A stretch of DNA of 64,000 nucleotides from Candidatus Marinacidobacterium sp. (lineage in GTDB: Bacteria > Acidobacteriota > Vicinamibacteria > Marinacidobacterales > Marinacidobacteraceae): contig OZ251549.1 in the NCBI GenBank assembly GCA_965243415.1, positions 2,290,239 through 2,354,238 on the forward strand, written 5' to 3'. The notes under the pieces are model-generated. The model ran no database searches and was not told the DNA's origin. It saw only the letters and a program-made list of their open reading frames with translations. Each line of letters starts with the position of its first letter. The stretch's first letter is position 1. This document shows, piece by piece, positions 18,125 through 61,489 of the stretch. A program made the position numbers and the translations under genes.

Positions 18125-18750
18125 TCGGCCATCCTTGGATCTCTCCGGACGCGGACCAGTTCTCGTTCGTTGTGCCTGACCCTCTGTCCGACGCCTCGGA
18201 AGCGGCGGGAAATATGGAGATCGATCGCGACCCGATGGATTCCATCCTCTCGGGGTATCTGTCGACGTATCGGGCACAGAACAGGAACGCTGAACTCGGA
18301 GACTCCGTGCGCGTGGACTTCTTCGTCGAGTCTGTTCACGATCGCGGGTCATTCGTCGTCGACGAGAGGATACGCGCCGACCGTCCGCCGCTTCGCCATC
18401 GCACAGCGTGGGGAAAGCGGATCGAGGATCTTCGTTCGTGGGCTGAGGAAGACGGAGATCCGTTCCGTTCCGAGTCAGAACGGGACTTCTGGGCATTCGT
18501 CGAAGCGACGCCCGACGTTCGCCGGGGCGGTCTCGTACTCGTGTGTAACGGCAACCTCCGCGCCGTCTGGGATGGAGACGCCGGCGCCAGCGTGGGGTTG
18601 CAGTTCCTCGGTAACGGGGTCGTGCAGTATGTCCTCTTCAGGCGTGGGTCAGATGTCGACCAACGATGGCCCGAGGGCGGACGCGACGACTTCGACGGCT
18701 TCATGCGCCGAGTACACAGCCTCGATCTCGAGTCGGTGGTGTTGGAGTGA
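18121..18750 (+). CDS. hypothetical protein (family X)
   Basis: ATG 18121 overlaps the upstream stop (ATGA). 209 aa with ordinary composition. The C-terminal 125 aa are duplicated at 19590-19965. Confidence 0.72.
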   Translation: MIGHPWISPDADQFSFVVPDPLSDASEAAGNMEIDRDPMDSILSGYLSTYRAQNRNAELGDSVRVDFFVESVHDRGSFVVDERIRADRPPLRHRTAWGKRIEDLRSWAEEDGDPFRSESERDFWAFVEATPDVRRGGLVLVCNGNLRAVWDGDAGASVGLQFLGNGVVQYVLFRRGSDVDQRWPEGGRDDFDGFMRRVHSLDLESVVLE

Positions 18751-19202
18751 CCGAAGGCACGGTGCCGGACGCCGATCATGTGGTCCGCTATGTGAAACAG
18801 AGTTCGATCGTAGACGGAAAGGTGCGAGGGTCCGCTTTCTTGCTCCGCCATGAGGAGGACGCTCTGTCCGTGAATTGGCTGGAGGTCTTCTCTATGGAGG
18901 AGGATGACCCGATCGACGCCGTACGGCAGGTGGTCCGTTTGCGACTCTCGAGGAACGGGCGGTTCGCCGAGATCCAAGTGGGGGAGGTCCGGCGGCGTCT
19001 CGCGGGGACGATCGATATCACCGTTATCCACCGGCCGCTCGAGGCCGATGTGGGTTTCCCGGCCGATCCATCCCATGCCGAGATTGCCGGACTGCCGGCA
19101 CGTGTCTCGCAGATTGCGGAGGAGGTTGGAGACGTGATCGCGAGGTGTGTACGGCGACTCCATCCCGCTGTCACCGAGCGATGTTCGGCAACTCGTGCGT
19201 AA
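18747..19202 (+). CDS. hypothetical protein
   Basis: GTG 18747 overlaps the upstream stop (GTGA). 151 aa: PDADHVVRYVKQSSIVDGKVRGSAFLLR..SVNWLE..PSHAEIAGLP. Confidence 0.65.
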   Translation: MTEGTVPDADHVVRYVKQSSIVDGKVRGSAFLLRHEEDALSVNWLEVFSMEEDDPIDAVRQVVRLRLSRNGRFAEIQVGEVRRRLAGTIDITVIHRPLEADVGFPADPSHAEIAGLPARVSQIAEEVGDVIARCVRRLHPAVTERCSATRA

Positions 19203-23531: not shown

Positions 23532-25261
<1,730 letters not shown>

Positions 25262-25512
25262 CGGTCTCTTCGAACGGAACGGTCTCCGAGGAACGGCCCC
25301 CGACACGACGACCCGCGGATCCGCCGACCCCGAACCGCCCGCCTCCGAACCGACCGACCCCGAGCCGACCGGCCCCGAACCGCCCGACCCCGAAGAGCCC
25401 GAAACCGAAAAGAACGACGCCGGAAGTGCCCGACCCCGAACCGACCGGCCCCCCCGGCGCGGCCCCCGAGCCCGGTCGGACCGGCCGTCCGCCGCCGCGC
25501 CGCCCCCCCGGG

Positions 25513-30049: not shown

Positions 30050-32577
30050 AGATCCCCGCGTCCGTCCCGAAGGCGTCCGCCCCCGGCTCCCGGCGCCCCA
30101 CGGTCCTCGGCGGAGCGCTGTCGGCCGTCGTCGCCGTCGCCGTTTCCTTCGTTTCTCTCGGTCTCCCGACGCCGGTCGCGGCCCACGCCTCCGCCCCGGC
30201 GCTCCCGACAGCGGCGCTCCCGGAAGCCGCGCAGACCGCCGAGACCGTGGAAGCGGTCGTCATCGAAGGGAACGACCTCATCGCCGCGGACGCCTGGCTG
30301 GCCCACCTCAGCGTGGAACCGGGCGACCCGGTGGACCGGGAAGCGCTCCGCGGCGAATTCCGCAAACTCTGGGACACGGGTTTCGCCGACGACCTCCGCC
30401 TCGAACTCCGACCGGGGCCCGGCGGCGGGAAGATCGTGGTGTTCGTCGTCCACGAGCGCCCCCGGATCGCCGCGGTGGAATTCGTCGGTTCCGAGGAACT
30501 CGACGACGACGAGATCCGCGAGAAACTGGAAGAGGAAGACGCGTTGATGCCGCTCGACGCGCCCTACGACCCGGACCGGGTGGTGAAGGCCCGGGAGGTC
30601 ATCGCCGCCCTCCTCGTGGACAAGGGCCGCACCGAAGGCGCGGTGGAGAGCGAGATCACCCAGTCGGAGGACGGCGTGCGGATCGTCTTCCAGATCCGGG
30701 ACGAGCAGCAGGTGCGCATCCGCCGGGTGCGGTTCACCGGCGTCGAGGCGCTCGACGAATGGGTGCTGCGCTGGGCGATGAGGAAGACCCGGGAGAGCCA
30801 CGCCCTCGGCGCGCTCCTCGGCGGCTCCACCTATACCGAGGAGCAGTACGGCGAAGACATCGAGAGCGTCCGCCAGGAATACCTGAAGCGCGGGTATCTC
30901 GATGTCTCCTTCGGCCCCCCGCAGATCGAGTACGAAGACGGCCATTCCCGCACCTTCCTCTTCTGGAAGCGGCCGAAGCGGTGGATGGACATCACCATCC
31001 CGGTGGCCGAGGGCGACCAGTACCGGGTGGGCGAAGTGACCGTCGAAGGCGCCGAAGTGTTCCCGGCGGAACTGGTGCGCGGCTTCTTCCCGCTGGCCCG
31101 GGGCGAGGTGTACGACGAATCCCGGGTGAACGACGGCCTGGAGTCGCTCCGCGAGATCTACGGCGCGCGGGGCTATGTGCAGTTCACCGGTTTCCCCACC
31201 TGGCGGCGGAACGAAGCGGAGAAGATCGTGGATGTGGTCGTCAACCTGGCCGAGGAAGACCAGTTCCTGGTGAACCGCATCGAGTTCCGGGGCAACTCCA
31301 CCACGAAGGACCGGGTCATCCGCCGCGAGATGTGGCTGAACGAGCAGGACATCATGAACATGGAACTGCTCAAGGCCTCGATCCAGCGGATCAACCAACT
31401 CGGCTACTTCCGCCCCATCGAACAGCCGGATATCCAGCCGAGCCCCGATGACGAAACGAAACTGGACATCACCCTCGACCTGGTGGAGGAGAACCGGAAC
31501 CAGCTCACCTTCGGCGCCGGCGTCTCCGGCCTCGAGGGTTTCTTCGCGAACGCTTCCTTCGGCACCACGAACTTCCTGGGCCGGGGCGAGACCGCGAACT
31601 TCACCATCCAGGCCGGCAACCGCACCCAGAACTACCAGATCGCGATCACCGATCCCTACTTCATGGACAAGCCGGTGACGCTGGGTTTCGATGTCTTCCG
31701 CCGGACGCTCAAGTTGCGCGAGTTCACCCGGGACGACATCGGCGGCCGCCTGGTGTTCGGTCTGCCCATCGGCCGCTGGTCGCGCGCCTTCCTGAACTAC
31801 GGCTACTCGGTCATCACCATCCGGGAACCGGACCCGGACATCGTGCTGAACCTCTACGACCTCTACTACAACAGCACCTACCTGGATCCCCGGTTCTACG
31901 GCCTGTCGGGGAACTTCCGGGAGAGCAAACTCAGTCCTTCCTATGTCTACAACACGGTGGACCATCCGATCTTCCCCAGCAGCGGGAAGAAACTGACCGC
32001 CTCGTTCGACATCGCCGGCGGGCGCCTGGGGGGGAATGTCCACTACTACAAGCCCACCCTCGAAGGCGTCCTCCACACCCGGGTCATCGGCGGCACTTCG
32101 CTCGGCTTCCGCGTGATGGGGAGTTACCTCCACGGGTACGGCGGCGTGCCCCCGGCGGACGGGGAGCCGATCGACATCTTCGATGTGGAGCAGACCGGCG
32201 TCCCCTACTACAACCGGTTCTTCCTCGGCGGCGAGTACCAGATCCGCGGCTTCTACATCCGTTCGGTGGGGCCCCGGAACGAGAACGGGCAACTGCTCGG
32301 CGGCAACAAGATGCTGCTGTTCAACGCCGAGTACTCGATTCCGCTGGCGGGGCCGCTCCGGGCGATCCTCTTCTTCGACGCCGGCAACGCCTTCGCCGAG
32401 GAGGACGCCTGGAGTTTCTCCATGCTGCAGAACTTCCGCACCTCGACCGGCATCGAGATGCGGGTGTTCATCCCCATGCTGAATGTGCCCTTCCGGCTCA
32501 TCTTCGCGTACAATCCCCACCGGGACTATTACCACCGGCCCACGGCGTTCGTCTTCGGGATCGGAACGACCTTCTAG
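30046..32577 (+). CDS. bamA: outer membrane protein assembly factor BamA
   Basis: ATG 30046 overlaps the clpC stop. POTRA repeats, C-terminal beta-barrel ending ..FVFGIGTTF. Confidence 0.92.
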   Translation: MKIPASVPKASAPGSRRPTVLGGALSAVVAVAVSFVSLGLPTPVAAHASAPALPTAALPEAAQTAETVEAVVIEGNDLIAADAWLAHLSVEPGDPVDREALRGEFRKLWDTGFADDLRLELRPGPGGGKIVVFVVHERPRIAAVEFVGSEELDDDEIREKLEEEDALMPLDAPYDPDRVVKAREVIAALLVDKGRTEGAVESEITQSEDGVRIVFQIRDEQQVRIRRVRFTGVEALDEWVLRWAMRKTRESHALGALLGGSTYTEEQYGEDIESVRQEYLKRGYLDVSFGPPQIEYEDGHSRTFLFWKRPKRWMDITIPVAEGDQYRVGEVTVEGAEVFPAELVRGFFPLARGEVYDESRVNDGLESLREIYGARGYVQFTGFPTWRRNEAEKIVDVVVNLAEEDQFLVNRIEFRGNSTTKDRVIRREMWLNEQDIMNMELLKASIQRINQLGYFRPIEQPDIQPSPDDETKLDITLDLVEENRNQLTFGAGVSGLEGFFANASFGTTNFLGRGETANFTIQAGNRTQNYQIAITDPYFMDKPVTLGFDVFRRTLKLREFTRDDIGGRLVFGLPIGRWSRAFLNYGYSVITIREPDPDIVLNLYDLYYNSTYLDPRFYGLSGNFRESKLSPSYVYNTVDHPIFPSSGKKLTASFDIAGGRLGGNVHYYKPTLEGVLHTRVIGGTSLGFRVMGSYLHGYGGVPPADGEPIDIFDVEQTGVPYYNRFFLGGEYQIRGFYIRSVGPRNENGQLLGGNKMLLFNAEYSIPLAGPLRAILFFDAGNAFAEEDAWSFSMLQNFRTSTGIEMRVFIPMLNVPFRLIFAYNPHRDYYHRPTAFVFGIGTTF

Positions 32578-35575: not shown

Positions 35576-38062
35576 ATGAACGCTCTCGCGCCGGCGGCGA
35601 ACCCGGCCCTGCCGCCGGCGGCGAATCCGACCCCGCCGCCGCCGGCGAATCCGACCCTGCCGCCGGTCGCTGCCGCCCTCCGCGGCCCCCGGGCGCAGAA
35701 CCGGCGGTTCCCGGCGGCGATCCTCCTCCCCGTCGTCTTCGCCGTCGTCTTCCCGGCCCCGGCCCCGGCGGACGCGGCGGCGCTCTTCCCGGCGGCCTCC
35801 CCGGCGGTCCCCTCCGAGTCCCCCTCGGAGCAAGGTCGCCCCGGGCAGGCTCCGGCGCCGGAAGGCCCGCCGATCCGCGTCGGACTCGCGGACGGCGTCC
35901 CCGCGGCGCTGCTCACCGCGCCCGCGCCCTTCACGCTCCGGGCCGGGGAACTGGCCATCGAAACCGCCTGGGTCCTCGTCTCCCCGGAGACCGGCCCCCC
36001 CGAACCGGTCTTCGCGCTGGGATCGTTCCCGACCGAAGACGCCGCCGACGAGACCGCCGAGGCCTTCCGCGAACGGGGCGGCGCCGGTGTCCGGGTGCGG
36101 CGGAACCCGGAGGACGGCCGCTATCTCCCGATCCCGACGGAGATCCCCCCCTCCTCCGCGGCGAACCCGGAAGCAGGCCCCGCCGACCGCCTCCGCGCCG
36201 CCGGCTTCCCCGGGGCCGGGGAGTACCCCCTCGCCGCCGCCGCCGGCGACGCCCTCGTCCTCCGTCCGGTCGGAGGCGCGCCGATCCGCATCCCCGGCGG
36301 CGTCCCGCTCGCGGTGACGCCCCCCGGCGCCGGCTTCCTCGAATGGGAGGGCCGGCCCTACCGGGGCGAGTTCACCGTCTTCCGCCGGGGCGCCGGCGTC
36401 ACCGTGGTGAACCGCCTCCCCCTGGAGGACTACCTGCTCGGCGTGGTCCCCCGGGAGTTGCCCCCCGACCTGTTCCCGGAGTTGGACGCCCTGAAGGCGC
36501 AGGCGCTGGCGGCGCGCACCTACGCGCTGCGCCCGCGCGACGCCTACCGGGAGCGCGGCTACGACCTCTGCAGCGGCCCGGCCTGCCAGGTGTACGGCGG
36601 CGCCGCCGCGGAGCGCCCGCTCTCCACCCGGGCGGTGCGCGAAACCGCCGGGGAGGCGATCTACCACGAGGGCGCGCCCATAGACGCGCTCTACACCGCG
36701 GCCTGCGGCGGCCACACCGAGAACGCCGAGAACATCTTCACGAACCCCACCCCCTACCTGGTGGGCCGCGCCGGCCTCCGGGAGTCCGGGGGCGCCCGCC
36801 TGGAGGCCGCCGGCGCGGCGCCGCTCGACGCCGCCGTCGCCCGGGCCGCCGGCGCCCTCCCGCCGGAGTGGCTCCGCTCCGGGGATTCCGACGCCGACCG
36901 CTTCGAGGTGCTGGCGGTCCCGGCGACCCCCGCCGAAGCCGGGAGTGTCCTGATGGCGACGGCGGACTTCCTGGGAATCCCGACCTGCCCGCCGACCGTC
37001 TCCGCTCCCCCGACTCCGACCCTCACGCTGGCCGCCTTCGGGGAGTTGGCGCAGGTTCTCCGCTGCCGCCCCCCGGCCCGGGCCGCCGCCCCCTCCGGCG
37101 CCTCCCCCTTCGGCCGGACCCCGGAAGAGGCGCCCGGTGAGCCGCCGGCCGGCGTCCGCGCCCTCCTCGACGAGGGCCTCCTCGACCCCGGCGACCGGGG
37201 CCTGGCGCCGAACCGCCCGGTGACCCGCCGCGAGGTCCTGGCCGCCGCTGCCGCCCTCCTCGAACGGGAGCGTCCGCTCTTCCGCCGCGGCCAGGTGCGT
37301 CGGGCGGGGAACGGCCTCCTCCTGATCGAGGAGGACTCCCCCGCCGGCACGGCGTCCGACGCCCTCCGGGGAACTCCCGCCGGGGCGAAACGCCTCTTCC
37401 GCCTGACGCCGGCGAACGACGCCCTCCTCTACCGGGAGACGCTCCCGATCCGGATCCCCGGCCGCCCCGACGCCGCCCCGCTCCTGGCGCCGGTCCCCGC
37501 CCTGACCGCCCGGCTCGGCGACTTCGTCCGCTTCCACGCCATCCCCGCCGGACCGCGACCGGAAGGCTCCGGGGGGAGCGCTTCCGACCCGGCCTCCCCC
37601 GACGCCGCTCCCGAGATCCGGTTCGGGATCCTGATCCTGGAAGACCTGGGCGAGACCTGGGACCGCTTCTCGCGGCAGCGCTCCTGGCTGGTGCCCAAGG
37701 ACGCCGGGACGCTGGCGGAGGCCGCCGCCCGGCTGAAGCCCATCGGCGACCTGCTGGCGCTGGAACCGCTCGAGTACGGCGTCTCCGGGCGCATCGTCCG
37801 GCTGCGCCTCGTCGGCAGCGACGGCAGTCTGGAAGTGCGGGGCCTCGGCGTCCGCCGCGTGCTGGGCCTCTCCGACAACCTGTTCTTCGCCGAACCGCGC
37901 TACACCCCGGACGGCCGGCTGCGCGGTTACTGGTTCACCGGCCGCGGCTGGGGCCACGGTCTCGGCCTCTGCCAGGCCGGAGCCTACGGAATGGCGGCGG
38001 CCGGCGCCGACTACCGGCAGATCCTGGCCCACTACTACCCGGGAACCGAGATCCGCCGATGA
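35576..38062 (+). CDS. SpoIID/LytB domain protein
   Basis: 828 aa. LEDYLLGVVPRE, KAQALAARTYAL, YTAACGGHTENAENIF, GRGWGHGLGLCQAGAYGMA. Confidence 0.85.
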   Translation: MNALAPAANPALPPAANPTPPPPANPTLPPVAAALRGPRAQNRRFPAAILLPVVFAVVFPAPAPADAAALFPAASPAVPSESPSEQGRPGQAPAPEGPPIRVGLADGVPAALLTAPAPFTLRAGELAIETAWVLVSPETGPPEPVFALGSFPTEDAADETAEAFRERGGAGVRVRRNPEDGRYLPIPTEIPPSSAANPEAGPADRLRAAGFPGAGEYPLAAAAGDALVLRPVGGAPIRIPGGVPLAVTPPGAGFLEWEGRPYRGEFTVFRRGAGVTVVNRLPLEDYLLGVVPRELPPDLFPELDALKAQALAARTYALRPRDAYRERGYDLCSGPACQVYGGAAAERPLSTRAVRETAGEAIYHEGAPIDALYTAACGGHTENAENIFTNPTPYLVGRAGLRESGGARLEAAGAAPLDAAVARAAGALPPEWLRSGDSDADRFEVLAVPATPAEAGSVLMATADFLGIPTCPPTVSAPPTPTLTLAAFGELAQVLRCRPPARAAAPSGASPFGRTPEEAPGEPPAGVRALLDEGLLDPGDRGLAPNRPVTRREVLAAAAALLERERPLFRRGQVRRAGNGLLLIEEDSPAGTASDALRGTPAGAKRLFRLTPANDALLYRETLPIRIPGRPDAAPLLAPVPALTARLGDFVRFHAIPAGPRPEGSGGSASDPASPDAAPEIRFGILILEDLGETWDRFSRQRSWLVPKDAGTLAEAAARLKPIGDLLALEPLEYGVSGRIVRLRLVGSDGSLEVRGLGVRRVLGLSDNLFFAEPRYTPDGRLRGYWFTGRGWGHGLGLCQAGAYGMAAAGADYRQILAHYYPGTEIRR

Positions 38063-38235
38063 CCCGGGAACGCGCCCTCGGGGAGACCCCGGCGCGTTGA
38101 ACCCCGCCTTCCTCCGCTTCAGCCCCGGCCAGTTGCGCGCCGGGGCGCTCGTGGTGCTGTTCCTGGCGCTGCTGGCCCTCCTCCGCCGCTGCTGAGGCGC
38201 GCCCCCTCGCCGCGCCACCGTGTCGCCCCGCCACC

Positions 38236-40030
38236 ATCGACCCGCCGTTGCTCCGCAGTCAACGCCCCGCCGCCACGGTCCCCGCCGGCCGTTGCGCCGT
38301 AGTCAACGCCTCCTCGGCCCTGGACTTCCGCCATCGCCCGTTGCTATCGACCGCGGCCGGCCGACCGTCCGCCATCGCCGGAGCGCCGCCCATCGCCCCG
38401 CCACCGTCGCTCCACCACCATCGCTCCACCACGGTTCCCCGGTAGCCGTCGGCCCGCCACTGCTGCCCGTTCCGCCGTTGACTCGTCGCCGTCGCTCCGC
38501 CCCCGCTGTTGCTTCCGCGTCAACGCCCCGCCTGCTGGCGCTTCGTCGGCAACGCCCGCCTCCCGTCGCTCCGCCGCCATCGCCCCCGTCGTCGCTGACC
38601 TGCCTCGGTTGCCCGTCGCCTTCGTCGTTCCGCCATCGTCCCCGTCGCTCGTGATCCGCTGCGCCGACCCGCCGTATTCGACCGGTCGCCGCCGACGCGC
38701 CGTGGCCCGGTCGCGTTCGACCCTCCGCCGTTGACCGCGGCGCTCCGTCCGTTGTTGCTTCTGCGTCAACGCCCCGCCTGCCGTTGCTTCGTCGGCAGCG
38801 CTCGCCTGCCGTCGCTCCGCCGCCGTCGCCCCCGCCATCGCTGACCTGCCTCCGTTGCCCGTCGCCTTCGTCGTTCCGCCATCGTCCCCGCCGCGCGTGA
38901 TCCGCTGCGCCGACCCGCCGTATTCGACCGGTCGCCGCCGACGCGCCGTGGCCCGGTCGCGTTCGACCCTCCGCCGTTGACCACGGCGCTCCGTCCGTTG
39001 TTGCTTCTGCGTCAACGCCCCGCCTGCTGTTGCTTCGTCGGCAACGCCCGCCTGCCGTCGCTCCGCCGCCATCGCTGACCTGCCTCGGTTGCCCGTCGCC
39101 TTCGTCGTTCCGCCATCGTCCCCGTCGCTCGTGATCCGCTGCGCCGACCTGCCGTATTCGACCGGTCGCCGCCGACGCGCCGCGGCCCGGTCGCGTTCGA
39201 CCCTCCGCCGTTGACCGCAGCGCTCCGCCCGCTGTTGCTTCTGCGTCAACGCCCCGCCTGCTGGTGCTTCGTCGGCAACGCCCGCCTGCCGTCGCTCCGC
39301 CGCCATCGCTGACCTGCCTCGGTTGCCCGTCGCCTTCGTCGTTCCGCCATCGTCCCCGTCGCTCGTGATCCGCTGCGCCGACTGCCCGTACTCGACCGGT
39401 CGCCGCCGACGCGCCGTGGCCCGGTCGCGTTCGACCTTCCGCCATACCGCAGCGCTCCGTCCGTTGTTGCTTCTGTGTCAACGCCCCGCCTGCTGTTGCT
39501 TCGTCGGCAACGCCCCGCGCCGCCATCGCCCTTCCGCCATCGTCCCCGCCGCCCGTGCTCCGCTGCACGGACCGGCCGTACTCGACCGGTCGCCGCCGAC
39601 ACGCCGTGGCCCGGTCGCGTTCGACCTCCGCCGTTGACCACAGCGCTCCGCCCGATGTTGCTTCTGTGTCAACGCCGCGCCTGCTGTTGCTTCCTCGGCA
39701 ACGCCCCGCGCCGCCATCGCCCTTCCGCCATCGTCCCCGTCGCTCGTGATCCGCTGCGCTGACTGCCCGTACTCGACCGGTCGCTGCCGACGCGCCGTGG
39801 CCCGGTCGCGTTCGACCTCCGCCGTTGACCGCAGCGCTCCGCCTGCTGTTGCTTCTGTGTCAACGCCAAGCAGGCTGTTGCTTCGTCGGCAACGCCCTGC
39901 ACCGCTGTTGCTCCGCCGCCATCGTCCTCGTCGCCCGTGATCCGCGGCGCTGACCTTTCGTACTCGACCGGTCGCCACCGACGCGCCGTGGCCCGGTCGC
40001 GTTCGACCCTCCGCCGTTGATCGCTGTCGG
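38236..40030. repeat. non-coding tandem array, about 8 units of 189-246 bp
   Basis: The anchor GTTGCTTC[CT]G[CT]GTCAACGCC recurs at 38508, 38754, 39000, 39234, 39466, 39655 and 39848. The + strand is strongly C/T-rich. Confidence 0.9.
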
Positions 40031-41198
40031 CGCCGACCCTCCGCCCCGCGGAGTGGAACCCGGGGCCGCTCCGCCCGCCGCTCTCGGGGACAGCGCCGAG
40101 GAATCCCCGGCGCCCGCCGCTCCGAAGGGCGCCGGAGACGGGGGCGACCGTCGGGTGCTGGCGCTGGTCGGTCCCACCGCTTCCGGAAAGTCGGAGGCGG
40201 CGGTGCGCCTGGCGCGGGACCTCCCGTTCCCGGTCGAGATCGTTTCCTGCGACGCCTTCCAGATCTACCGCGGCCTCGCCGTCGGCGCCGGGGTCCTCCC
40301 CGAAGAAGCGCGCCGGGGCGTCCCCCACCACCTGCTCGGCGTCCTCGCCCCCGACGACCCGGCGACCGCCGGACGGTACGCCGAACTCGCGGCCGCCGCC
40401 ATCCGGGAGATCCGGGGCCGGGGCGCCACGCCGCTCGTCGTCGGCGGCAGCGGGCTCTACTTCCGGGCCCTGCGGGACGGGCTCTTCGCCGGGCCCCGAC
40501 CCGAACCCGAACTGCGCCGCCGCCTGGCCCGGATCGCCTCCCGCCGTCGCGGCGACCACTGGCTGGCCCGGCTGCTCGCCCGGCTCGACCCGGAAGCCCA
40601 CCGGGCCATCCACCCGAGCGACCGGGTGCGCCGGGCGCGGGCGCTGGAAGTCGCGCTGCTCGCCGGCCGGCCCCTCTCCGCCCTGCGCCGGACTCGCCGC
40701 CCGCCGCTGCCGGAAGCCGGGTGGCGGATCGTCGCGCTCGATCCGCCACGCGACGCCCTCGACGCCCGCATCGTCCGGCGCGTCCGGGCCATGTTCGCCG
40801 CCGGCCTGGTCGAAGAAGCCGCAGCCCTGGAGCGGCGCTTCGGCGACCAGTGGCCGGGCCGGGGAGCGATCGGTTACCGCGAAGTCCTCGCCGCCCTGGC
40901 CGCCCGCGCCGGTTCCGAAACGCCGGGGGGCCCCACCGACTCCCCGGCGCCGGAGCCGCTCGCCGACCGTCTGCGCCGCGCCGAGTCGCAGATCGTCACC
41001 GCCACCCGCCGTTACGCGAAGCGCCAGCGCACCTGGTTCCGCGCCGAGCGGGGCCTGACCCGGTTCCGCGCCGACCCCGACTCCCCCTCCTTCCCCGCCG
41101 GCCTCCTCGCCGCCTTCACCGCGCCGGAGCCCCCGGAGGAACCGGCGGCGTCGTCAGAGGGGCCCCGGGACCTCCCGTCCCGCCGCCCCGAGTCCTAG
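40017..41198 (+). CDS. miaA: tRNA dimethylallyltransferase (start uncertain, between 40017 and GTG 40155)
   Basis: LVGPTASGKS P-loop, DAFQIYRGL, HHLLGVL. Confidence 0.88.
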   Translation: MIAVGADPPPRGVEPGAAPPAALGDSAEESPAPAAPKGAGDGGDRRVLALVGPTASGKSEAAVRLARDLPFPVEIVSCDAFQIYRGLAVGAGVLPEEARRGVPHHLLGVLAPDDPATAGRYAELAAAAIREIRGRGATPLVVGGSGLYFRALRDGLFAGPRPEPELRRRLARIASRRRGDHWLARLLARLDPEAHRAIHPSDRVRRARALEVALLAGRPLSALRRTRRPPLPEAGWRIVALDPPRDALDARIVRRVRAMFAAGLVEEAAALERRFGDQWPGRGAIGYREVLAALAARAGSETPGGPTDSPAPEPLADRLRRAESQIVTATRRYAKRQRTWFRAERGLTRFRADPDSPSFPAGLLAAFTAPEPPEEPAASSEGPRDLPSRRPES

Positions 41199-44236: not shown

Positions 44237-44446
44237 ATCTCCGGTTCGATTCCCTCCCGGTCCCCCGGGGTGGCATTCGCCTCCGTCGTACCGGCGCGGC
44301 GCCGAGGGCTTCGGCGCTGAAGTGTCGGTCGCTCCCGCCGGAGACGCCGTTACCGCCGCGGGGATGGACCTCGGTGAGGGAACCGCCGGGAACCGGGCGC
44401 GACGGTCGATCTCGCCAGGTTCACTGCCGGCGCTATGTTCCCGGGT

Positions 44447-44558
44447 GGCGTGCGTGACACGGTGCGATTCCCCGAGCCGTAGCCCGCCCCTCCCGGGGAC
44501 GCGCGCGCTATGTGGGGTTGCCGGGCTTCGGTCCGGGGCGGGGGCCCCACCGTGCGCC
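44447..44558 (+). ncRNA. structured RNA-like element, copy 1 (subtype A)
   Basis: TATGTT box at 44434-44439. Terminal stem GGCGUGCG/CGUGCGCC (two G.U). Two internal hairpins. See finding. Confidence 0.5.
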
Positions 44559-44574
44559 ACCTCCGAAGGTTCCG

Positions 44575-44760: not shown

Positions 44761-44804
44761 CCCCGCGCCGACGGGCGCGGGGACGACTCGCTATCCTCCC
44801 GAGC

Positions 44805-44913
44805 GGCGCACGTGACACGGTGATATTCCGTCTGCCGTAGCCCGCCCCTTCGGGGGCGCGAGTGTTATGTGGGGTTGCCGGCTTCGGCCGGGGGACGGGC
44901 CCCACCGTGCGCC
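44805..44913 (+). ncRNA. structured RNA-like element, copy 2 (subtype B)
   Basis: TATCCT at 44792-44797. 8-bp terminal stem. C(UUCG)G hairpins, hairpin 2 shortened by one bp in both arms. Confidence 0.5.
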
Positions 44914-45183
44914 ATCCGGTATCGGGTTCGAGTTGCCTGCCGGAGCGCCGCCGGTGACCCTTCCTCGTCGAACTCCTCGTTGAATCTTCGAGTTTCGAGG
45001 CGTTCGCGGTTTCCCCCGGGTTCCTTCCTCCGTTCCGGCGGTGAAGTCGAGGCTCGCCGTTTCTTCGCGGCGGCCGCTTCGAGTCTCTGTCTCGACCCCG
45101 GCCGGGGGCGACGCCGGGCCGGGGTCTTCGGTGGGTCGGCCCTCGCGCTGCGTCGCGGCTTGATTCTCGCTATATTCCCGAGC

Positions 45184-45293
45184 GGCGCACGTGACACGGT
45201 GCGATTCCCCGAGCCGTAGCCCGCCCCTTCGGGGGCGCGAGTGTTATGTGGGTTGCCGGGCTTCGGCCCGGGGCGGGGGCCCCACCGTGCGCC
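45184..45293 (+). ncRNA. structured RNA-like element, copy 3 (subtype A)
   Basis: TATATT at 45171-45176. 8-bp terminal stem GGCGCACG/CGTGCGCC. Two C(UUCG)G hairpins. Confidence 0.55.
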
Positions 45294-45339
45294 ACCCGGT
45301 TTCGAATCTGCGAAGCGCGCCGGGGCGAGGGCAGGAGGT

Positions 45340-45512: not shown

Positions 45513-45736
45513 CGGCGAGAGGCGCCCGCCGGTCACAGCCTTCCTCGCCGAAGGCGTTTCGGTTCGATGCTTCGGCGGTCTCTCTCGAAGGCGGCGGCGA
45601 AGTCGATGCTCCCGGCCTTCTCGCGGCAACGGCGTCGGGTCCATCTCGACCCGGCCGGGGACGCGTTGCCGAGGCGGTCTCCGGTGCGCCGGCTCTCGGG
45701 TGGCGGTGCGCCGGATTCCGCGCTATGTTCTCGGGC

Positions 45737-45845
45737 GGCGCACGTGACACGGTGCGATTCCCCGAGCCGTAGCCCGCCCCTTCCGGGGCGAGAGTGTTAT
45801 GTGGGGTTGCCGGGCTTGCCCGGGGCGGGGGCCCCACCGTGCGCC
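45737..45845 (+). ncRNA. structured RNA-like element, copy 4 (subtype A)
   Basis: TATGTT at 45724-45729. Hairpin 2 capped G(CUUG)C instead of C(UUCG)G. Confidence 0.55.
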
Positions 45846-45940
45846 ACCGCCTCGACCATTCCCCCGGCAGCGCCGCCTCCGGTCGGTGCGCTCCGGTCAA
45901 CGCCGCCCGTGTGCGCCGACGATTCGCTATCCTCCTCGGT

Positions 45941-46049
45941 GGCGCACGTGACACGGTGATATTCCGTCTGCCGTAGCCCGTTCCTTCGGGAGCGAGAGTG
46001 TTATGCGGGGTTGCCGGCTTCGGCCGGGGGACGGGCCGCACCGTGCGCT
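45941..46049 (+). ncRNA. structured RNA-like element, copy 5 (subtype B)
   Basis: TATCCT at 45928-45933. Hairpin 1 is CGUUCC/GGAGCG, compensatory relative to CGCCCC/GGGGCG. Confidence 0.5.
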
Positions 46050-46468
46050 ACCCGGTTCGGGTTCGAGAGCCGCACCGGAACGCTGCCGACGGACTCGACG
46101 GACGGACCGCGGTTCGAGGGTGGAGAGAGACCTCGCCGCTGGTGGTTCGTTCGGCGATGGCCCGAGATGGTCTTCGCCGACTCGGTTCCACACCACGGGA
46201 TCGGGGCATTTCCGTCGGCGGACCATCCGCTCGTCGGAAGATTCTCGACGGTTGGCGCCCACCGGCGCCCGGCGCTCATCGGGGATCCCGGCTGTCGAGG
46301 CCCTTCGCAGGTTCCGCCGACAGCGGGAGCGAATTCAGGGTCCCGGTCTTCTCGTGGCGGCATCGGGGAGCGCCCTCCGGTCCCGGCGGGACGCGCTGCC
46401 GGGCCGGGGTCTCCGGCACCCCCGCCTCGCGCTGCCGCACGGCCGGGTTCCGTGCTATACTCCCGATC

Positions 46469-46577
46469 GGCGCACGTGACACGGTGCGATTCCCCGAGCC
46501 GTAGCCCGCCCCTTCGGGGGCGCGAGCGCTATGTGGGGTTGCCGGGCTTGCCCGGGGCGGGGGCCCCACCGTGCGCC
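46469..46577 (+). ncRNA. structured RNA-like element, copy 6 (subtype A)
   Basis: Extended -10 TGcTATACT at 46453-46461. CUUG-capped hairpin 2. The 3' end lies 8 nt from the stop codon of the convergent gene 46585..47370. Confidence 0.55.
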
Positions 46578-46584
46578 ACCCGCC

Positions 46585-47370
46585 TCAACGGTTACCGTGT
46601 CGCCGTTCGCTCGGTACACGATTGCGATCACAGCGGTGGAAGGTCTGCAGATAGACCTCGTTGATCGCGGTTCGTTTAACGATGACCCGGAACCAGTCGC
46701 TGTCGATCCGGTGGTAGAAGGCGAGATGCCGGTCGTCTATGGCCTCCCACTCGCCGTGCGCGATGACCTCCGGCAAACGCCGGTAGTGGCGGGCTCGAAG
46801 CGGTTTGCTGTGCCGCCCGTCTTCGTGCTTCAGTTGCTTCAGGGCTGTCTCGGGTGAGAGCCACACCACCCGGCCCGTTTCCGAGTTCGAGTTGGGCGCG
46901 GGCGTCATGGCGGAGCGCGGTTCGTCCGGCAGGGTCGCCACGGGGATCTCCCCGATCTGGTTCCTGATCTCCGGGTCAGGGATCACCACCGGGTTCCGTT
47001 GCCGCCACTCCGGGTGCAACCGGCCGTAGGCCGCAACTCGCGCCCGGAACTGGTCCAGGAGCGGGTCCCGCTCGTCGAGGCATTCGCGGATCCTCTCGAG
47101 GCCGGCCCCGAACTCGAGGTCCGCGATCTCCGGTTGGTGGCGTTGCCGCGGAGCCCGGCCCCGACCCGGAGCCTGCGGGCCCCGAGCGCGGGGGCCCGGC
47201 CGGGACGCACCGGTTCCCGGGGCTGCGACAGCGTGGCGGGCCTCCCGGCGCCTCTCCGCCGCGCCCTCGGGACACGGGGCCGGGGCGGGCGGGGGCGGGG
47301 CACGTTCGGGAGGCGAGCTGCTGCCTCCCGGAGGGGAGCGGGGCGGACCGCGTCCGGCGTCGATTGCCAT
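46585..47370 (-). CDS. hypothetical protein with a small low-GC C-terminal nuclease-like domain (alternative start ATG 46906-46908)
   Basis: The C-terminal 107 aa (LSPETALKQLKHEDGRHSKPL..YRRLPEVIAHGEW..FRVIVKRTAINEVYLQTFHR) have ordinary composition and lower GC. The N-terminal 80 aa are Pro/Arg-rich and doubtful. Confidence 0.65.
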   Translation of the reverse strand: MAIDAGRGPPRSPPGGSSSPPERAPPPPAPAPCPEGAAERRREARHAVAAPGTGASRPGPRARGPQAPGRGRAPRQRHQPEIADLEFGAGLERIRECLDERDPLLDQFRARVAAYGRLHPEWRQRNPVVIPDPEIRNQIGEIPVATLPDEPRSAMTPAPNSNSETGRVVWLSPETALKQLKHEDGRHSKPLRARHYRRLPEVIAHGEWEAIDDRHLAFYHRIDSDWFRVIVKRTAINEVYLQTFHRCDRNRVPSERRHGNR

Positions 47371-51519: not shown

Positions 51520-54150
51520 ATGACGGGCATCTACGACTGGGTCCCCTGGTTCCGGGCCTTGTCCGCGAGGATCGTGGAAGTCGGTGAGCAGGGCCTCATC
51601 GATCGGGCCCAGGAGGTGGACTGGGGGGCGAAGAAGCCGACGCTGTCGAAGTTCGGTTTTGACCAGATCGACCCACTGTCGTTGGTGTATTTCCTCTCCT
51701 CGAAGAACGGCAACTACGCCGTCTTCGAGTCAGTACATCGCACCTTTGAGATCGACACGCCTCTACCTGACCAGACGATGCCAGAGGCGTGGGTGTTTCC
51801 GGTGGCCATGCCTCTCAAGGCGAATTTCTTCGGCAAGGACGGACCACCAAAGCCGAATTTGTTCTGGCGCCTGTTTCGACAGGTGCAGCCGGATGAGCCT
51901 ACGCTCGACGACGTCACATTCCAAGGGGCTCTCCAAATCAAGGGGCTCGGCGTCGCCATGCTGACGCAGGCGATGTGCTTGGTGAATCCCTACCGCTTCC
52001 TTCCGATCGACGACTTCACGAGGCCGCTCATCGGACAGTTTCCGGCAGCGGATATCCTCAAGAAGGGCAAGGCGGCGCTGAAGGACATCATCACACTTGA
52101 CAACTACACGGCGATCATGTGTGGCGTTCGAGACGTGTTCCGGGGTTGCGAACTCTACGAAATCGGTAGATTCCTCTACGAACACGGGAAAAAGAAGAAG
52201 GGGCTCGTCACCAAGAAGTCGACCTATTTCCACATTACCACGAGACTGCACGGAGACAAAGGAGACGACGCCTGGAATGAATTCGATCAGGAGAACGCGG
52301 TCCGAACAAGCGGCCAAGCCCCCCGCGTTCCGTTCGGCAAACTGTTGCCAGACGGCACAGAACCCTATCCGTTGGAGGAGCCGAGACCGGGCGACATCAT
52401 GCTGGTCCGATGCGGCGTGCACGAGGGGCGTGGAGTCGGCGTCGTGGTTCGCAACGACTTTGCGTTGCCGGGCGACCTCAGGGCCGAGAGTCGAATCCAT
52501 GTCCTCTGGATCAACAAGGCCCGTTCCCGTCTGTCCGGTCAGACGGAGCGGTCTGCCATGGGTGAGATCAGAAAGCAGAAGAAAGCGACGTTCTGCGCCT
52601 TCTCGAACGCGAAGGCGTACGAGCCCACGTTCAAGATCCTGCGGGTGCGATTCGAAGTGCCGGACCCAGTAGAATGCAAAGGCGAGGAGCCGAACGGGCC
52701 AGTGGTGACACATTCTCGGAACCAGATCCTCTACGGGCCCCCAGGGACGGGGAAGACTTGGAACACAGTGTCACTTGCGGTGGCGATCGCCGACGGCCGG
52801 GCTGTGGTCGAGGTGGAATCGGACGGGCGGGAGTGCGTGAAGGCACGGTTCGATGAACTCCGGGGGGCGGGGCAGGTCGCCATGGCAACGTTCCACCAGA
52901 ACTACGCGTACGAGGACTTCATCGAGGGCATCCGTCCCGTCGTGGAAGACGATGCCGATGACGGCGTGGCGTTCGAATTGCGTCGCGGGGTGTTTCGGAT
53001 TCTGGCGGAGCGGGCAGCGGAGAATCTGCGGGACTCGAGGATGTCCGGCGACGACTCTTGGAAGACGGAGGACGTCCTCCGGAAGTTTCTGGAGTGGGTG
53101 GACGAGACGACGGAGGGAGAAGAGCGGATTCCGTTGTACCGGAGCGGAAAGGTCGAGCTCTTCATCTATGGGGTCTACGAAGGGAAGAGCGGGGATGTGG
53201 CCGGCGTCCGGATCGGCGGGACGACGGACCAGAAACTGTCCTGGAAGGTTCTGGCTCGTGACTATCCCCCGTTCCGGAGAGGACTGATCACTTCCTATCA
53301 GGACATCAAGCCTACGAAACCGTCGAAGAGCCCATGGTTCGGGCAGGCCATCTATGCGTACGAGGTGTTGAAGAAGATGGGAGAGTTCCACGAACAGCAC
53401 CGAGACGAATTGGAACGCGAGAGGACGGAGAGGCGCAATTTCGTTCTCATCATCGATGAGATCAATCGGGGGAACATCGCCCGGATCTTCGGGGAACTCA
53501 TCACTCTGCTGGAGGAGTCGCGGCGCATCGGATGCAGTGACGAGACAAGAGTGGTGCTGCCCTATTCCGGAGAGGAGTTCGGAGTGCCCGAGAATCTGTA
53601 CGTCATCGGGACGATGAACACGGCGGACCGGTCTATCGCGCTTCTCGACACTGCACTCCGGAGACGCTTCGAGTTCGTGGAGATGATGCCGAGGGCGGAC
53701 CACGAGGGTGTGTCGGGAAAAGTTGATGGAGTCGACTGCCAGCGGCTGTTGGAATCCATGAACCGGAGGATCCGGTTCCTTCTCGACCGGGAGCACCAGA
53801 TCGGCCACACCTATCTCTTGGGTGTGAAGAACATCGTGGATCTGAAAAAGGCCTTCCAGAAGCAGATTCTGCCACTCCTGCAGGAGTACTTCTACGACAA
53901 CTGGGCGAAGATCAAGGCGGTACTTGGTGCCAGCGGCTTCATCAAGACCGTGGACCGCCCGGGGGAATTGAGTACGGAACTGGTGGACGCCGACCAGAAA
54001 GCCTACGATGTCTTGGCGTACACGGATGAGAAGTGGGAGGAGCCGGCCTCCTACAGGAAGATCTACGACGAGAAGGCCGGTGCGGACCAGAAGGTGCCGG
54101 AGGCCGAGCCGGAGCAGGGGGCGGAGACGGGTGGCACTGCCGGCGGATGA
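51520..54150 (+). CDS. mcrB: McrB-family GTP-dependent restriction AAA+ subunit, with long unassigned N-terminal region
   Basis: ATG 51520. GPPGTGKT, FHQNYAYEDFIEG, IIDEINRGN, IGTMNTADRS, LRRRFEF. GC visibly lower than the flanks. Confidence 0.9.
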   Translation: MTGIYDWVPWFRALSARIVEVGEQGLIDRAQEVDWGAKKPTLSKFGFDQIDPLSLVYFLSSKNGNYAVFESVHRTFEIDTPLPDQTMPEAWVFPVAMPLKANFFGKDGPPKPNLFWRLFRQVQPDEPTLDDVTFQGALQIKGLGVAMLTQAMCLVNPYRFLPIDDFTRPLIGQFPAADILKKGKAALKDIITLDNYTAIMCGVRDVFRGCELYEIGRFLYEHGKKKKGLVTKKSTYFHITTRLHGDKGDDAWNEFDQENAVRTSGQAPRVPFGKLLPDGTEPYPLEEPRPGDIMLVRCGVHEGRGVGVVVRNDFALPGDLRAESRIHVLWINKARSRLSGQTERSAMGEIRKQKKATFCAFSNAKAYEPTFKILRVRFEVPDPVECKGEEPNGPVVTHSRNQILYGPPGTGKTWNTVSLAVAIADGRAVVEVESDGRECVKARFDELRGAGQVAMATFHQNYAYEDFIEGIRPVVEDDADDGVAFELRRGVFRILAERAAENLRDSRMSGDDSWKTEDVLRKFLEWVDETTEGEERIPLYRSGKVELFIYGVYEGKSGDVAGVRIGGTTDQKLSWKVLARDYPPFRRGLITSYQDIKPTKPSKSPWFGQAIYAYEVLKKMGEFHEQHRDELERERTERRNFVLIIDEINRGNIARIFGELITLLEESRRIGCSDETRVVLPYSGEEFGVPENLYVIGTMNTADRSIALLDTALRRRFEFVEMMPRADHEGVSGKVDGVDCQRLLESMNRRIRFLLDREHQIGHTYLLGVKNIVDLKKAFQKQILPLLQEYFYDNWAKIKAVLGASGFIKTVDRPGELSTELVDADQKAYDVLAYTDEKWEEPASYRKIYDEKAGADQKVPEAEPEQGAETGGTAGG

Positions 54151-59665: not shown

Positions 59666-61489
59666 TCAGGAGATAGCCGCCAGTGATGCCAGCAGTGTGT
59701 CCGCGGCTCTGTCCGCGGCCGAAAGCGCTTCGCCCAGATCGATCCCATCGAGAATCAAGTCTCCGGTACTTGCGAGGCCGACAACCGATGCGGCGGCGGT
59801 CCCTCCGGCGCGAAGCGTGGCTTTGCGAAGGGCATCCGTTCGTGATTTCCACATCTCGAGAGCGGCGGCGGCCGCGCCTACGGAGCGCCCGTCCATGTGG
59901 GGTATTTTCCCGGCCGCCGCCACCATCCTCTCCCCTGCCTCTGTCAATTTGCGACTCGCGGTGCGTGCGGCAACCGCAGCGGTTCCCAAGCGCAGTGTCG
60001 CCCCGACAAGAGCCGCTCTGTTCGCGTCGGCTCTCGCGCTCTTCCACTCCTCCGCGGCGACCTGTGCCGCGGACCAAGCCGCGATGCGTGTGTCGTATGC
60101 ATTCAGCAGGGCCGCCGCTTCCTCGTAGGAAGTTTGAGCAGCTTGGGCGGCGGCGATCACAGGCGCCGCTGCTTCAGATGCCGCCTCGGCCGCAGCAGTG
60201 ACTACGAGGAGTTTTTCTTCGTGCTCAGCACGAACGAGTTCCATAGCCTCACGTGCATGCATCTCAGCCACCGCCATGTACGCTCCATGTCGCTCCTCCA
60301 GCCTTCGTTCTATTTCCCTCGCAGTGGCAACGATTTCGCCTCCCGCCCCCAACCCCTCAGTCAGGATTCGTGTCGCTGCCCTTGCCCGCTCCAGCGCCGA
60401 ACCCGCCGACTGCGCATCAACGACCTCCGCCAGCACTTCCGCGATTCCGGAGGCCGCGTCCGCTTCCGAAGCCGCCCCCACTGCACGACCCTCGGCCTCG
60501 GCGGCCTGCTGTTGTAGTGGCCTCGTGAATGCGGCCGCTGCCAGCCCAGCACTTCGCCAAACTACTGTCGCTTCATCCAATGCTTCCATCCATTGTTTCA
60601 CATTGCGTCTACAGTCTTCGCGACGCCAGCAATCTCGACGCACAATGCTCTCTTGTGCTTCTACGATCGCATCCTCCGCAGCCAACGCCTCTTCTGACTT
60701 CGACGGAGCCACGAGGTCAAGAAGACGCCGACGCGCCTCGCGCGTGTGTCCAAGCCGGCCTGGCACGAGGTCAAGAAGACGCCGACGCGCCTCGCGCGTG
60801 TGTCCAAGCCGGCCTGGCATCAGTGACTGCCGGGACGAGGAGTAGCGCGAGTAGTTGTGGAAGAAGAGAGTGTATTGGCAGTTTGACAGAGAGAGGGGCT
60901 GCCCGGTCGGCATGTGATGTTGTGCTTCATTTTTCCACCCGACCAACTCATTACTCCACTTTCGCATGAATTCACGGTCGGTCCACCATGCCCTTCTCCA
61001 GCGTCCCACCTCCTGTGTGTACCGGACAGCCACGTCTGCCGCTGACTTCGCCTCTCGGGCTTCCTGTTGCAGAGTCTGCGCTTGGCCGTGAAGTCTCTCG
61101 GCCTCGCCCTTTGAGGTCGCCGCCTTCTCTTTCCAGGAATTGATCATCTCCTCATAGTCCGTCAGCATGTCTGCCTCCGGTGTCTCCATCCAGAAGTGTC
61201 GTGCAGCATTCGCCGCATCCGCGGCTTGATCTTCCACACGGGCCTCAGCCTCCCGAAGTGCGCTCCGGGCGGCATCACGAGAGTGGCGGGCCTTCTCGGC
61301 CAGTGCTTCGGCCGCAGCGAGTGCGGCCTCGGCTCTGGTAGCACGCGATTCCACGGCCCGAAAGGTTGCCGGTGTCTGATTAGACAAGTACCACCGTGTC
61401 CGTTCACTGCTGTGTCTTGCATGAGGCGTGGCAATACTCAGGGAGGCGACTGCCAAGGCGATCGGAAGGGATCGGATAGCAATTTTCAT
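59666..61489 (-). CDS. secreted Ala-rich helical protein, unknown function
   Basis: 607 aa. Signal peptide MKIAIRSLPIALAVASLSIATPHA. Lower GC. Contains an in-frame 18-aa exact duplication. Confidence 0.72.
   Translation of the reverse strand: MKIAIRSLPIALAVASLSIATPHARHSSERTRWYLSNQTPATFRAVESRATRAEAALAAAEALAEKARHSRDAARSALREAEARVEDQAADAANAARHFWMETPEADMLTDYEEMINSWKEKAATSKGEAERLHGQAQTLQQEAREAKSAADVAVRYTQEVGRWRRAWWTDREFMRKWSNELVGWKNEAQHHMPTGQPLSLSNCQYTLFFHNYSRYSSSRQSLMPGRLGHTREARRRLLDLVPGRLGHTREARRRLLDLVAPSKSEEALAAEDAIVEAQESIVRRDCWRREDCRRNVKQWMEALDEATVVWRSAGLAAAAFTRPLQQQAAEAEGRAVGAASEADAASGIAEVLAEVVDAQSAGSALERARAATRILTEGLGAGGEIVATAREIERRLEERHGAYMAVAEMHAREAMELVRAEHEEKLLVVTAAAEAASEAAAPVIAAAQAAQTSYEEAAALLNAYDTRIAAWSAAQVAAEEWKSARADANRAALVGATLRLGTAAVAARTASRKLTEAGERMVAAAGKIPHMDGRSVGAAAAALEMWKSRTDALRKATLRAGGTAAASVVGLASTGDLILDGIDLGEALSAADRAADTLLASLAAIS
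60711..60818 (-). repeat. perfect 2 x 54-bp tandem duplication
   Basis: 60711-60764 is identical to 60765-60818. Encodes (PGRLGHTREARRRLLDLV)x2 in frame. Confidence 0.95.

Follow-up and report, generated by a model that had tools for sequence, protein, structure and literature searches.

The nearest known analogues of the locus described here are presumably the bacterial variable-number tandem repeats (VNTRs) of the type of the mycobacterial interspersed repetitive units (MIRUs). The locus is a tandem array of 1.8 kb at positions 38228-40020 (plus strand) of a stretch of 64,000 nucleotides (nt) from Candidatus Marinacidobacterium sp. (contig OZ251549.1, positions 2,290,239 to 2,354,238). This whole stretch is called the window below, and the array lies in it between a gene for a SpoIID-domain protein and miaA. 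The MIRU units of Mycobacterium tuberculosis measure 46-101 nt and are found at ~40 dispersed loci; MIRU/VNTR loci are treated in the review PMC3914561, with reference to Supply et al. 1997 and 2000. Like the MIRUs, the array consists of head-to-tail non-coding repeats, all oriented alike with respect to transcription, in a spacer of co-directional operon genes, its copy number varies between closely related strains, and the small open reading frames (ORFs) of its units have overlapping stop and start codons, here of the form NTGA. It differs from them in its units of 191-246 nt, which fall outside the range of 46-101 nt, in a nested higher-order structure (14, 29, ~190-246 and 480 nt) and in having been found at only one locus in the 64-kb window and the fetched loci of relatives, where MIRUs occupy ~40. 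There is no sequence similarity, and the host is an uncultured sponge-associated member of the Acidobacteriota.

Other described systems share single aspects with this locus. Rho utilization (rut) sites are marked by untranslated, C-rich, G-poor and poorly structured RNA that is rich in YC dimers (Y, pyrimidine); they span ~70-100 nt and are not tandem arrays. The sense strand of the array shows these properties over a long stretch: it is untranslated, rich in C and in YC dimers, poor in G and weakly structured, and its composition would be compatible with a Rho-loading region. However, it is tandem and longer than ~70-100 nt, and a spacer of different type at the same place in a relative (L008) lacks the rut composition. 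Eukaryotic higher-order satellites resemble the array in their hierarchical duplication, within-array homogenisation and fast turnover of architecture between lineages, whereas the array covers only 1.8 kb in a bacterial operon spacer, without megabase heterochromatin or a centromere-type role. As a lead only, tandem arrays of small RNAs (sRNAs) such as the cyanobacterial NsiR1 repeats and sponge RNAs of the CsrB/RsmZ type can be compared. These share tandem non-coding units adjoining a gene, but the array has no unit-wise promoter or terminator, no conservation of structure and no enrichment of GGA.

With moderate confidence we regard the array as a nearly neutral, hypervariable and lineage-specific higher-order minisatellite, i.e. 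a bacterial VNTR. The features that define VNTRs were all found: repeats arranged head to tail, a copy number that varies between close strains, and no coding function. The array is built of the following parts, for some of which unique assembly pieces (unitigs) were available in the independent read sets X1 and X3:

38228-38488, plus strand: decayed leading unit u0, with two GTTGC-N6-GTCAACGCC sub-repeats 44 nt apart
38390-38432, plus strand: 14-nt microsatellite in u0, CCATCGCTCCACCA in 3.1 copies, with a copy number that differs among strains
38489-38734, plus strand: unit u1, long type, 246 nt, delimited by unit alignment
38735-38980, plus strand: unit u2, long type, 246 nt; its specific unitig 38752-38883 is at single-copy depth in X1 and X3
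38981-39214, plus strand: unit u3, long type, 234 nt, with a 12-nt deletion relative to u1 and u2
39215-39446, plus strand: unit u4, long type, 232 nt, without the terminal TTGA motif
39447-39637, plus strand: unit u5, short type, 191 nt, lacking ~43 nt of the variable middle module; unitigs 39408-39506 and 39519-39631 of this region are at single-copy depth
39638-39828, plus strand: unit u6, short type, 191 nt; unitig 39610-39724 is at single-copy depth
39829-40020, plus strand: unit u7, short type, ending in CCGTTGA; unitig 39801-40007 is at single-copy depth

The original prediction, made from the sequence by eye, had claimed about eight head-to-tail units, and seven well-kept units plus the decayed one were indeed delimited by Tandem Repeats Finder (TRF), by anchor positions and by unit alignment. 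In order, the well-kept units are 246, 246, 234, 232, 191, 191 and 191 nt long and follow each other without unique spacers. TRF, which had been proposed as a check, recovered the array with a 234-nt period (4.1 copies, 90% match), a 191-nt period (3.6 copies, 88% match) and an additional higher-order period of 480 nt, at scores of 1062-1611. The anchor GTTGCTTCYGYGTCAACGCC is found exactly at 38508, 38754, 39000, 39234, 39466, 39657 and 39848 (seven occurrences versus 0.02 expected), with anchor-to-anchor periods of 246, 246, 234, 232, 191 and 191 nt. Six of the seven anchors and the first four periods had been given correctly, whereas the sixth anchor had been placed at 39655 and the last two periods had accordingly been read as 189 and 193 nt instead of 191. 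The identity between units of the window array, estimated at 85-95% for neighbours, was computed as 86-96%.

Alignment of the units resolves three modules in each. The 5' module comprises two 29-nt sub-repeats, GTTGCTTCTGYGTCAACGCC and GTTGCTTCGTCGGCAAC, the second following 29 nt after the first, and this agrees with the two sub-repeat copies per unit that had been described. The middle module is variable and of low complexity, with motifs that resemble the 14-nt repeat of the leading unit; indels of 12 and ~43 nt in this module account for the split into long units (232-246 nt) and short ones (191 nt). The 3' module of ~110 nt terminates in CCGTTGA. Repetition is thus nested at scales of 14, 29, ~190-246 and 480 nt. 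Two further elements noted at the outset were confirmed: every one of the seven units holds a single copy of the palindrome CGACCGGTCG (eight copies in the window versus 0.9 expected), and the inverted pair CGTTGAC-N29/36-GTCAACG extends across six unit junctions, where 0.01 would be expected. The C/T-rich and A-poor character of the plus strand was also borne out. Over 1.9 kb it has a median A content of 7%, 64% pyrimidines and a C/G ratio of 1.64, versus 14%, 51% and 1.08 in the rest of the window, where a comparable strand bias is never sustained for more than ~300 nt. The GC content is 0.70-0.76 throughout the array and 72% in the window as a whole.

The array does not code for protein. 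GC content hardly differs between the codon phases (0.70-0.77) in any of the six frames, while neighbouring genes show ~0.9/0.75/0.5, and codon-usage log-odds lie between -0.25 and -0.48 bits per codon in every array frame versus +0.32 to +0.57 in twelve real genes. Each plus-strand frame contains 6-9 stops in the array, and periods of 191, 232 and, in the relative L004, 89 nt break the reading frame; the frame-breaking argument had been made before with periods of 232 and 193 nt, of which the first holds and the second is in fact 191 nt, with the same consequence. Pfam gave no match to the long array ORFs, and a search with the 421-amino-acid (aa) minus-strand ORF against 5.8 billion proteins returned nothing but the gene call of this ORF and two others, no less spurious, from orthologous arrays. 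A coding repeat can be rejected on these grounds. The six-frame scoring of third-position GC (GC3) and codon usage suggested earlier thus found no genome-typical frame; the finding named at that time as overturning the non-coding call, namely a frame whose codon usage is typical and which has protein homologs, was not made, since all frames fail and homologs beyond the orthologous arrays are absent. Gene callers have nevertheless placed proteins in such arrays: P0121 (380 aa, 38303-39568, minus strand) in the window, and in the arrays or spacers of relatives the ORFs L004 5608-6609, L010 309-1001, L021 4946-5635 and 6001-6936, and L022 862-1599. These called array proteins of 229-380 aa have no Pfam match. 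Together with a MiaA start at the TTG of the last unit, discussed below, they can probably be put down to annotation error in a repeat that is rich in GC and poor in stops.

The comparison with relatives shows how the array came about. In the following list, identities are relative to the window, and the gap is the spacer from the stop codon of a small ORF of 32 codons, located behind the SpoIID gene, to the GTG start of miaA:

L011, 68% MiaA identity: gap 6 nt, no array
L012, 64% MiaA identity: gap 22 nt, no array
L006, 84% MiaA identity: gap 300 nt, single proto-unit
L003, 91% MiaA identity: gap 832 nt, two units
L008, 80% MiaA identity: gap ~1377 nt, unrelated short repeats
L004, 89% MiaA identity: gap 1626 nt, 12.4 copies of an 89-nt unit made of the same sub-repeats
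L022, ~97% nucleotide identity in the flanks: gap 1700 nt, one long unit and five short ones, of which the last contains four 29-nt sub-repeats
Window: gap 1959 nt, seven units and one decayed unit
L021, ~97% nucleotide identity in the flanks: gap 2391 nt, one long and ~9 short units

With a gap of 6-22 nt in the distant relatives versus 300-2391 nt in the others, the array is a young, clade-specific insertion into an ancestrally compact operon. Copy number ranges from 2 to ~10 units among the compared strains, in differing layouts, the values for relatives being possible underestimates from short-read assemblies. In Logan contigs of other sponge metagenomes, internal units are missing or rejoined; several of the runs containing the sequence are labelled as sponge metagenomes. 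Between strains of a single species-level population, every level of the hierarchy (14, 29 and ~190-246 nt) has changed. Orthologs of unit u7 are the last unit of L003 and an internal unit of L021. Identity is higher within an array (up to 96%) than between orthologous units of different strains, which argues for recent duplication or homogenisation. Orthologous units of the window and L003 diverge by 12-14%, and four-fold degenerate sites in spoIID, miaA and recG of the same pair by 13-16%. As the sequence evolves at about the neutral rate, there is probably no selection for a sequence-specific function. Among the functions proposed originally, the satellite fits best with such a strain-variable array of approximately neutral divergence. 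A hidden Markov model of the unit, run on the 64-kb window and on every locus fetched from relatives, gave matches in the spoIID-miaA spacer alone. Patterns of the double sub-repeat found only unrelated short-period repeats or nothing in GTDB representative genomes and metagenomes of the Joint Genome Institute (JGI), although these patterns were perhaps too strict, or the lineage is absent from these collections.

The array is not an assembly artefact, and k-mer depth in independent read sets supports its assembled copy number. In Logan contigs of X1 and X3, five unit-specific unitigs match with 100% identity at 0.9-1.3 times the depth of the flanks, and a piece common to several units reaches 2.85 times the flank depth, where a multiplicity of 2.4 was predicted. 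Independent assemblies of two other samples, L021 and L022, contain arrays of comparable size. The predicted protein of the window itself is located on a contig of 4,475,995 bp.

The array does not occupy the complete interval between its neighbours, which are as follows:

35576-38062, plus strand: gene for a SpoIID-domain protein, 828 aa from ATG (Pfam PF08486 SpoIID, E 2e-22), with coding GC-phase
38097-38195, plus strand: conserved 32-codon ORF (TTG...TGA) for the hydrophobic-tailed peptide LNPAFLRFSPGQLRAGALVVLFLALLALLRRC, recognised by its conservation
40021-40154, plus strand: non-repeated leader of ~135 nt between array and miaA
40155-41198, plus strand: miaA, tRNA dimethylallyltransferase (Pfam PF01715 IPPT, E 1e-63)

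The interval of ~2.1 kb between the SpoIID gene and miaA has no coding-like frame over its length, and the original prediction had seen it as filled by the array up to the miaA start region. This has to be corrected at both ends: the 32-codon ORF and the leader lie outside the array, and the leader separates the array end from GTG 40155. The small ORF is kept in L003, L004, L006 and L008 with mostly synonymous changes and is present in the distant L011 and L012 as well, there abutting miaA. It follows from this conservation that the non-coding spacer starts at 38196; it extends over 1959 nt (38196-40154). A 13-codon ORF begins at ATGA 38059, which overlaps the spoIID stop, and terminates at TTGA 38097, where the small ORF starts; in L012 it is the start of the small peptide itself, a GTGA, that overlaps the stop of spoIID. 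Judged by its conservation, the ORF probably encodes a real small membrane peptide. The upstream SpoIID gene is syntenic in all relatives, and where contigs reach, the shared gene order is BamA, Skp, FabZ, TonB, SpoIID, small ORF, MiaA, hypothetical gene and RecG. By its MiaA homologs, which have 43-91% identity, the organism belongs to the Acidobacteriota.

For miaA itself, GTG 40155 is the likely start codon, as it directly precedes the P-loop sequence VLALVGPTASGKS and its equivalent is the MiaA start in the distant relatives L011 and L012. The gene callers of relatives translate the leader as an extension of MiaA from TTG 40017, inside the CCGTTGA of the last unit. In the 46 codons from this TTG, variable columns are distributed over the codon positions as 13/16/20 of 45 each, which is no clear coding signature, versus 1/0/5 in the next 15 miaA codons. 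We reject the N-terminal extension for this reason and because of the start in the distant relatives; MiaA has probably been over-extended by 46 codons in these calls.

A chain of translationally coupled small ORFs through the array was also considered. All plus-strand stops in 38479-40020 are of the form NTGA (GTGA, CTGA, TTGA), while the decayed leading unit also carries two TAG stops. In the units of 234 and 246 nt, each ORF that takes the overlapped NTG as its start extends to the following NTGA, and a chain of GTG39555, GTGA39746, GTGA39937 and TTGA40017 leads into the extended miaA frame. In the window, the chain that begins at the 32-codon ORF fails to connect with the miaA frame. The overlaps do exist and tile part of the array, but to a large extent they are imposed by its A-poverty, of which they are probably a by-product, and they are inconsistent between strains; the coupling chain was therefore discarded.

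Taking these observations together with the favoured minisatellite reading, the following history emerges. The ancestral operon was compact, with spoIID, the 32-codon ORF, miaA, a hypothetical gene and recG. An ancestor of the clade then gained a pyrimidine-rich spacer of ~300 nt between the 32-codon ORF and miaA, and parts of this spacer were amplified head to tail at nested scales (14, 29, 89 or ~190-246, and 480 nt). The arrays continue to expand, contract and reshuffle between strains, probably by replication slippage and unequal homologous recombination between units. Since the array lies between co-directional, once translationally coupled genes, it is probably transcribed on the plus strand as a long untranslated intercistronic spacer. 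The predicted RNA is C-rich, G-poor and unusually unstructured and would thus have a rut-like composition. The most probable effect, if any, would be weaker read-through from spoIID into miaA-recG, in which case miaA would depend on its own promoter.

Several points weigh against pure neutrality or limit this reading. In the sister sub-clade of L008 and L010, unrelated repeats are found at the same spacer (~1.4 kb in L008), which could reflect selection for a long repetitive spacer or merely a local hotspot. Between close strains, non-repeated spacer sequence is conserved to the same degree as the coding flanks (96-99%), and in a genome with a GC3 of 0.9 four-fold sites are themselves constrained and thus an imperfect neutral yardstick. 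The 3' 45 nt of the unit (TCGACCGGTCGCCGCCGACGCGCCGTGGCCCGGTCGCGTTCGAC; core TCGACCGGTCGCC...GTTCGAC) are less variable than the rest (P ~0.004), and this could mean constraint, for example by a protein-binding site. Furthermore, the relatives are short-read assemblies, as mentioned, and searches of RNA runs for the locus returned only runs of unlabelled kind with DNA-like even coverage.

As the repeats of the sister sub-clade are unrelated to those of the window, the spoIID-miaA spacer has gained repeats more than once. In these two relatives (L008 5787-7163, L010 285-1245) we observed GCCGATGCCGAC-type motifs, a 20/40-nt array of CGGCTCCGCTTCCGCCCCGG and a 213-nt duplication; L010 (82% MiaA identity) resembles L008 and has the 213-nt duplication in addition.

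The strongest alternative to the minisatellite, rather unlikely in our view but worth weighing, is a selected cis-regulatory spacer. Here, the C-rich unstructured RNA would load Rho or act as an insulator and so set how much spoIID transcription reaches miaA-recG, and a change of copy number would tune or phase-vary miaA expression as in a contingency locus. Besides the C/G ratio and pyrimidine content given above, the plus strand offers 406 YC dimers in 1532 nt. The plus-strand RNA of four units folds with a minimum free energy of -326 kcal/mol, worse than all 20 of 20 shuffles (z +5.2), whereas the minus strand does not deviate (z -0.5) and a coding control of the same length reaches -522 kcal/mol (z -1.6). 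The L004 array leans in the same direction (z +1.8). That the insertion splits an ancestrally coupled operon, that copy number varies among strains with ~97% identity in the flanks, and that long repeats arose at this spacer independently in two sub-clades would also suit such a role. However, the composition is not conserved across expanded spacers: that of L008 is not pyrimidine-rich (53% pyrimidines, C/G 1.12) and folds without bias (z +0.5). In addition, the divergence of the sequence is about neutral, the amplification of a pyrimidine-rich seed accounts for the composition without selection, and a consensus scan found no miaA promoter. A narrower form of this proposal, in which the array would be a Rho- or polarity-based VNTR contingency switch, i.e. 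a selected insulator tunable by copy number and acting neither via promoter spacing nor via the reading frame, appears doubtful and less likely again. If it were true, gain and loss of units would make a tRNA-modification enzyme with an influence on translation fidelity vary heritably among the members of a symbiont population.

It is improbable, at about the same level as the switch or slightly below, that the array presents iteron-like DNA sites for a sequence-specific protein. Candidate sites would be the palindromes CGACCGGTCG, GGTCG-N4-CGACC and GTTGC-N7-GCAAC. The first is present in every unit of the window and in 22 of 24 units across strains, and as a zero-spacer palindrome it cannot form an RNA hairpin; together with GGTCG-N4-CGACC it lies in the 45-nt core, the least variable part of the unit. 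Moreover, one unit, L003a, has changed both arms of GTTGC...GCAAC to GTCGC...GCGAC, although such compensatory change is not general: each palindrome is broken in several units without compensation. The content of inverted repeats is not above chance (folding z near zero on both strands), and no DNA-binding gene is specifically linked, as relatives without the array have the same neighbours. An iteron array at a replication origin was rejected as well. The GC content remains at 0.70-0.76 throughout (72-75% by the estimate used for this comparison), there is no AT-rich region, cumulative GC skew runs monotonically through the locus, rep and dnaA genes are absent from the surroundings, and the neighbours are unrelated to replication initiation.

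Very unlikely is an array of tandem sRNA genes, or of a sponge RNA that would titrate an RNA-binding protein, for example of the CsrA type on the minus strand. A repeated sRNA was among the initial suggestions, and the repetitive architecture, the strong strand asymmetry and the small hairpins that can be drawn would suit it, but none of the tests for a structured RNA speaks for it. Rfam, run on the whole window at gathering thresholds and on the array at E values up to 10, gave only a chance match to mir-564 (E 6), so a known RNA family was dismissed. Single units fold no better than dinucleotide shuffles on both strands (z +1.1, -0.9, +1.1 and 0.0). RNAalifold detected compensatory change in none of 33 consensus pairs of 24 units from four strains, and no covariation in an earlier set of 9 units; at similar data depth, an element downstream of recG, described below, covaries clearly. 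Consensus searches for sigma-70 promoters and intrinsic terminators at the array found none; a sigma-54-like GG-N10-GC was seen by eye in only two of the seven units, and TTGAC motifs have no -10 partner. A CsrA-type sponge can be discarded, as the minus strand shows no excess of GGA or AGGA (for AGGA, 2 occurrences versus 8.3 expected); the anti-Shine-Dalgarno motif CCUCC is not enriched either.

Two other repeat systems were considered and rejected. Arrays of clustered regularly interspaced short palindromic repeats (CRISPR) have repeats of ~23-55 nt, unique spacers of about the same length and, as a rule, cas genes close by; here, the units are contiguous and there is no cas match among the Pfam-scanned neighbours (FabA-like, TonB, SpoIID, MiaA, RecG); the gene adjoining miaA has no Pfam match, and RecG shows one sub-threshold Cas3-like match only. 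A diversity-generating retroelement (DGR) does not fit in anatomy or neighbours, and the differences between units, by eye, are ordinary transitions and not adenine-specific. Least credible of all is a protein-coding repeat on either strand or an assembly artefact inflating a shorter repeat, since the open minus-strand ORFs, P0121 and the ORFs called in relatives' arrays are outweighed by the failure of all frames in GC3 and codon usage, the frame-breaking periods, the lack of Pfam matches and of homologs outside orthologous arrays, the single-copy depth of unit-specific unitigs in independent runs and the independently assembled arrays of L021 and L022.

Unrelated in sequence to the spoIID-miaA array is a second repetitive element of ~137 nt, which occurs in six copies in a non-coding stretch of 2.3 kb (44.2-46.6 kb) downstream of recG:

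44428-44567, plus strand: first copy
44786-44922, plus strand: second copy
45165-45302, plus strand: third copy
45718-45853, plus strand: fourth copy
45922-46058, plus strand: fifth copy
46450-46586, plus strand: sixth copy

The predicted fold of each has three hairpins, of which one carries a UUCG cap, and is closed by a helix GGCGCACG/CGUGCGCC. With a covariance model, 26 copies were found in L003, L004, L005, L006, L008, L010 and L011, in every case downstream of recG. In the alignment, 95.9% of pair cells are paired versus 33-55% in slid controls, and 8 pairs show compensatory changes versus 3.5 ± 1.1 in shuffles (reached by 0 of 500). Invariant U·G pairs indicate an RNA on the plus strand. 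Rfam contains no family that matches the element. It is likely a new multi-copy structured RNA and perhaps a more promising subject than the array for finding new RNA biology here. At L011 9607-10663, likewise downstream of recG, we observed an array with a period of 352 nt (3.0 copies, 86% match) that overlaps a called ORF of 244 aa.

Repeats of other kinds were observed elsewhere in the window. Short C-rich tandem repeats lie at 35589-35666 (24 nt), 23542-23692 (30/60), 25324-25452 (30) and 12486-12685 (30/45). Their periods are multiples of three, and two of them are located in the N-terminal parts of SpoIID and of Asp-tRNA synthetase, which are unusually long here. Repeat expansion seems to be common in this genome. 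A perfect 54-nt tandem duplication is found at 60710-60819 (2.0 copies, 100% match). Islands of lower GC content (0.59-0.64 versus 0.72) at ~17000-19000, 31000-32000, 52000-54000 and 60000-62000, some with reversed GC skew, may be horizontally acquired or otherwise atypical.

For annotation, the array is a warning, as it gives rise to spurious proteins of 230-380 aa and to a MiaA that is probably 46 codons too long in the gene calls. If it is only a minisatellite, it would provide a highly discriminating strain marker for this sponge-associated lineage of Acidobacteriota and a clean case of a tightly coupled bacterial operon that has absorbed 2 kb of repetitive non-coding DNA. If the spacer affects the expression of miaA-recG, this would represent an unusual form of regulation through repeat length.

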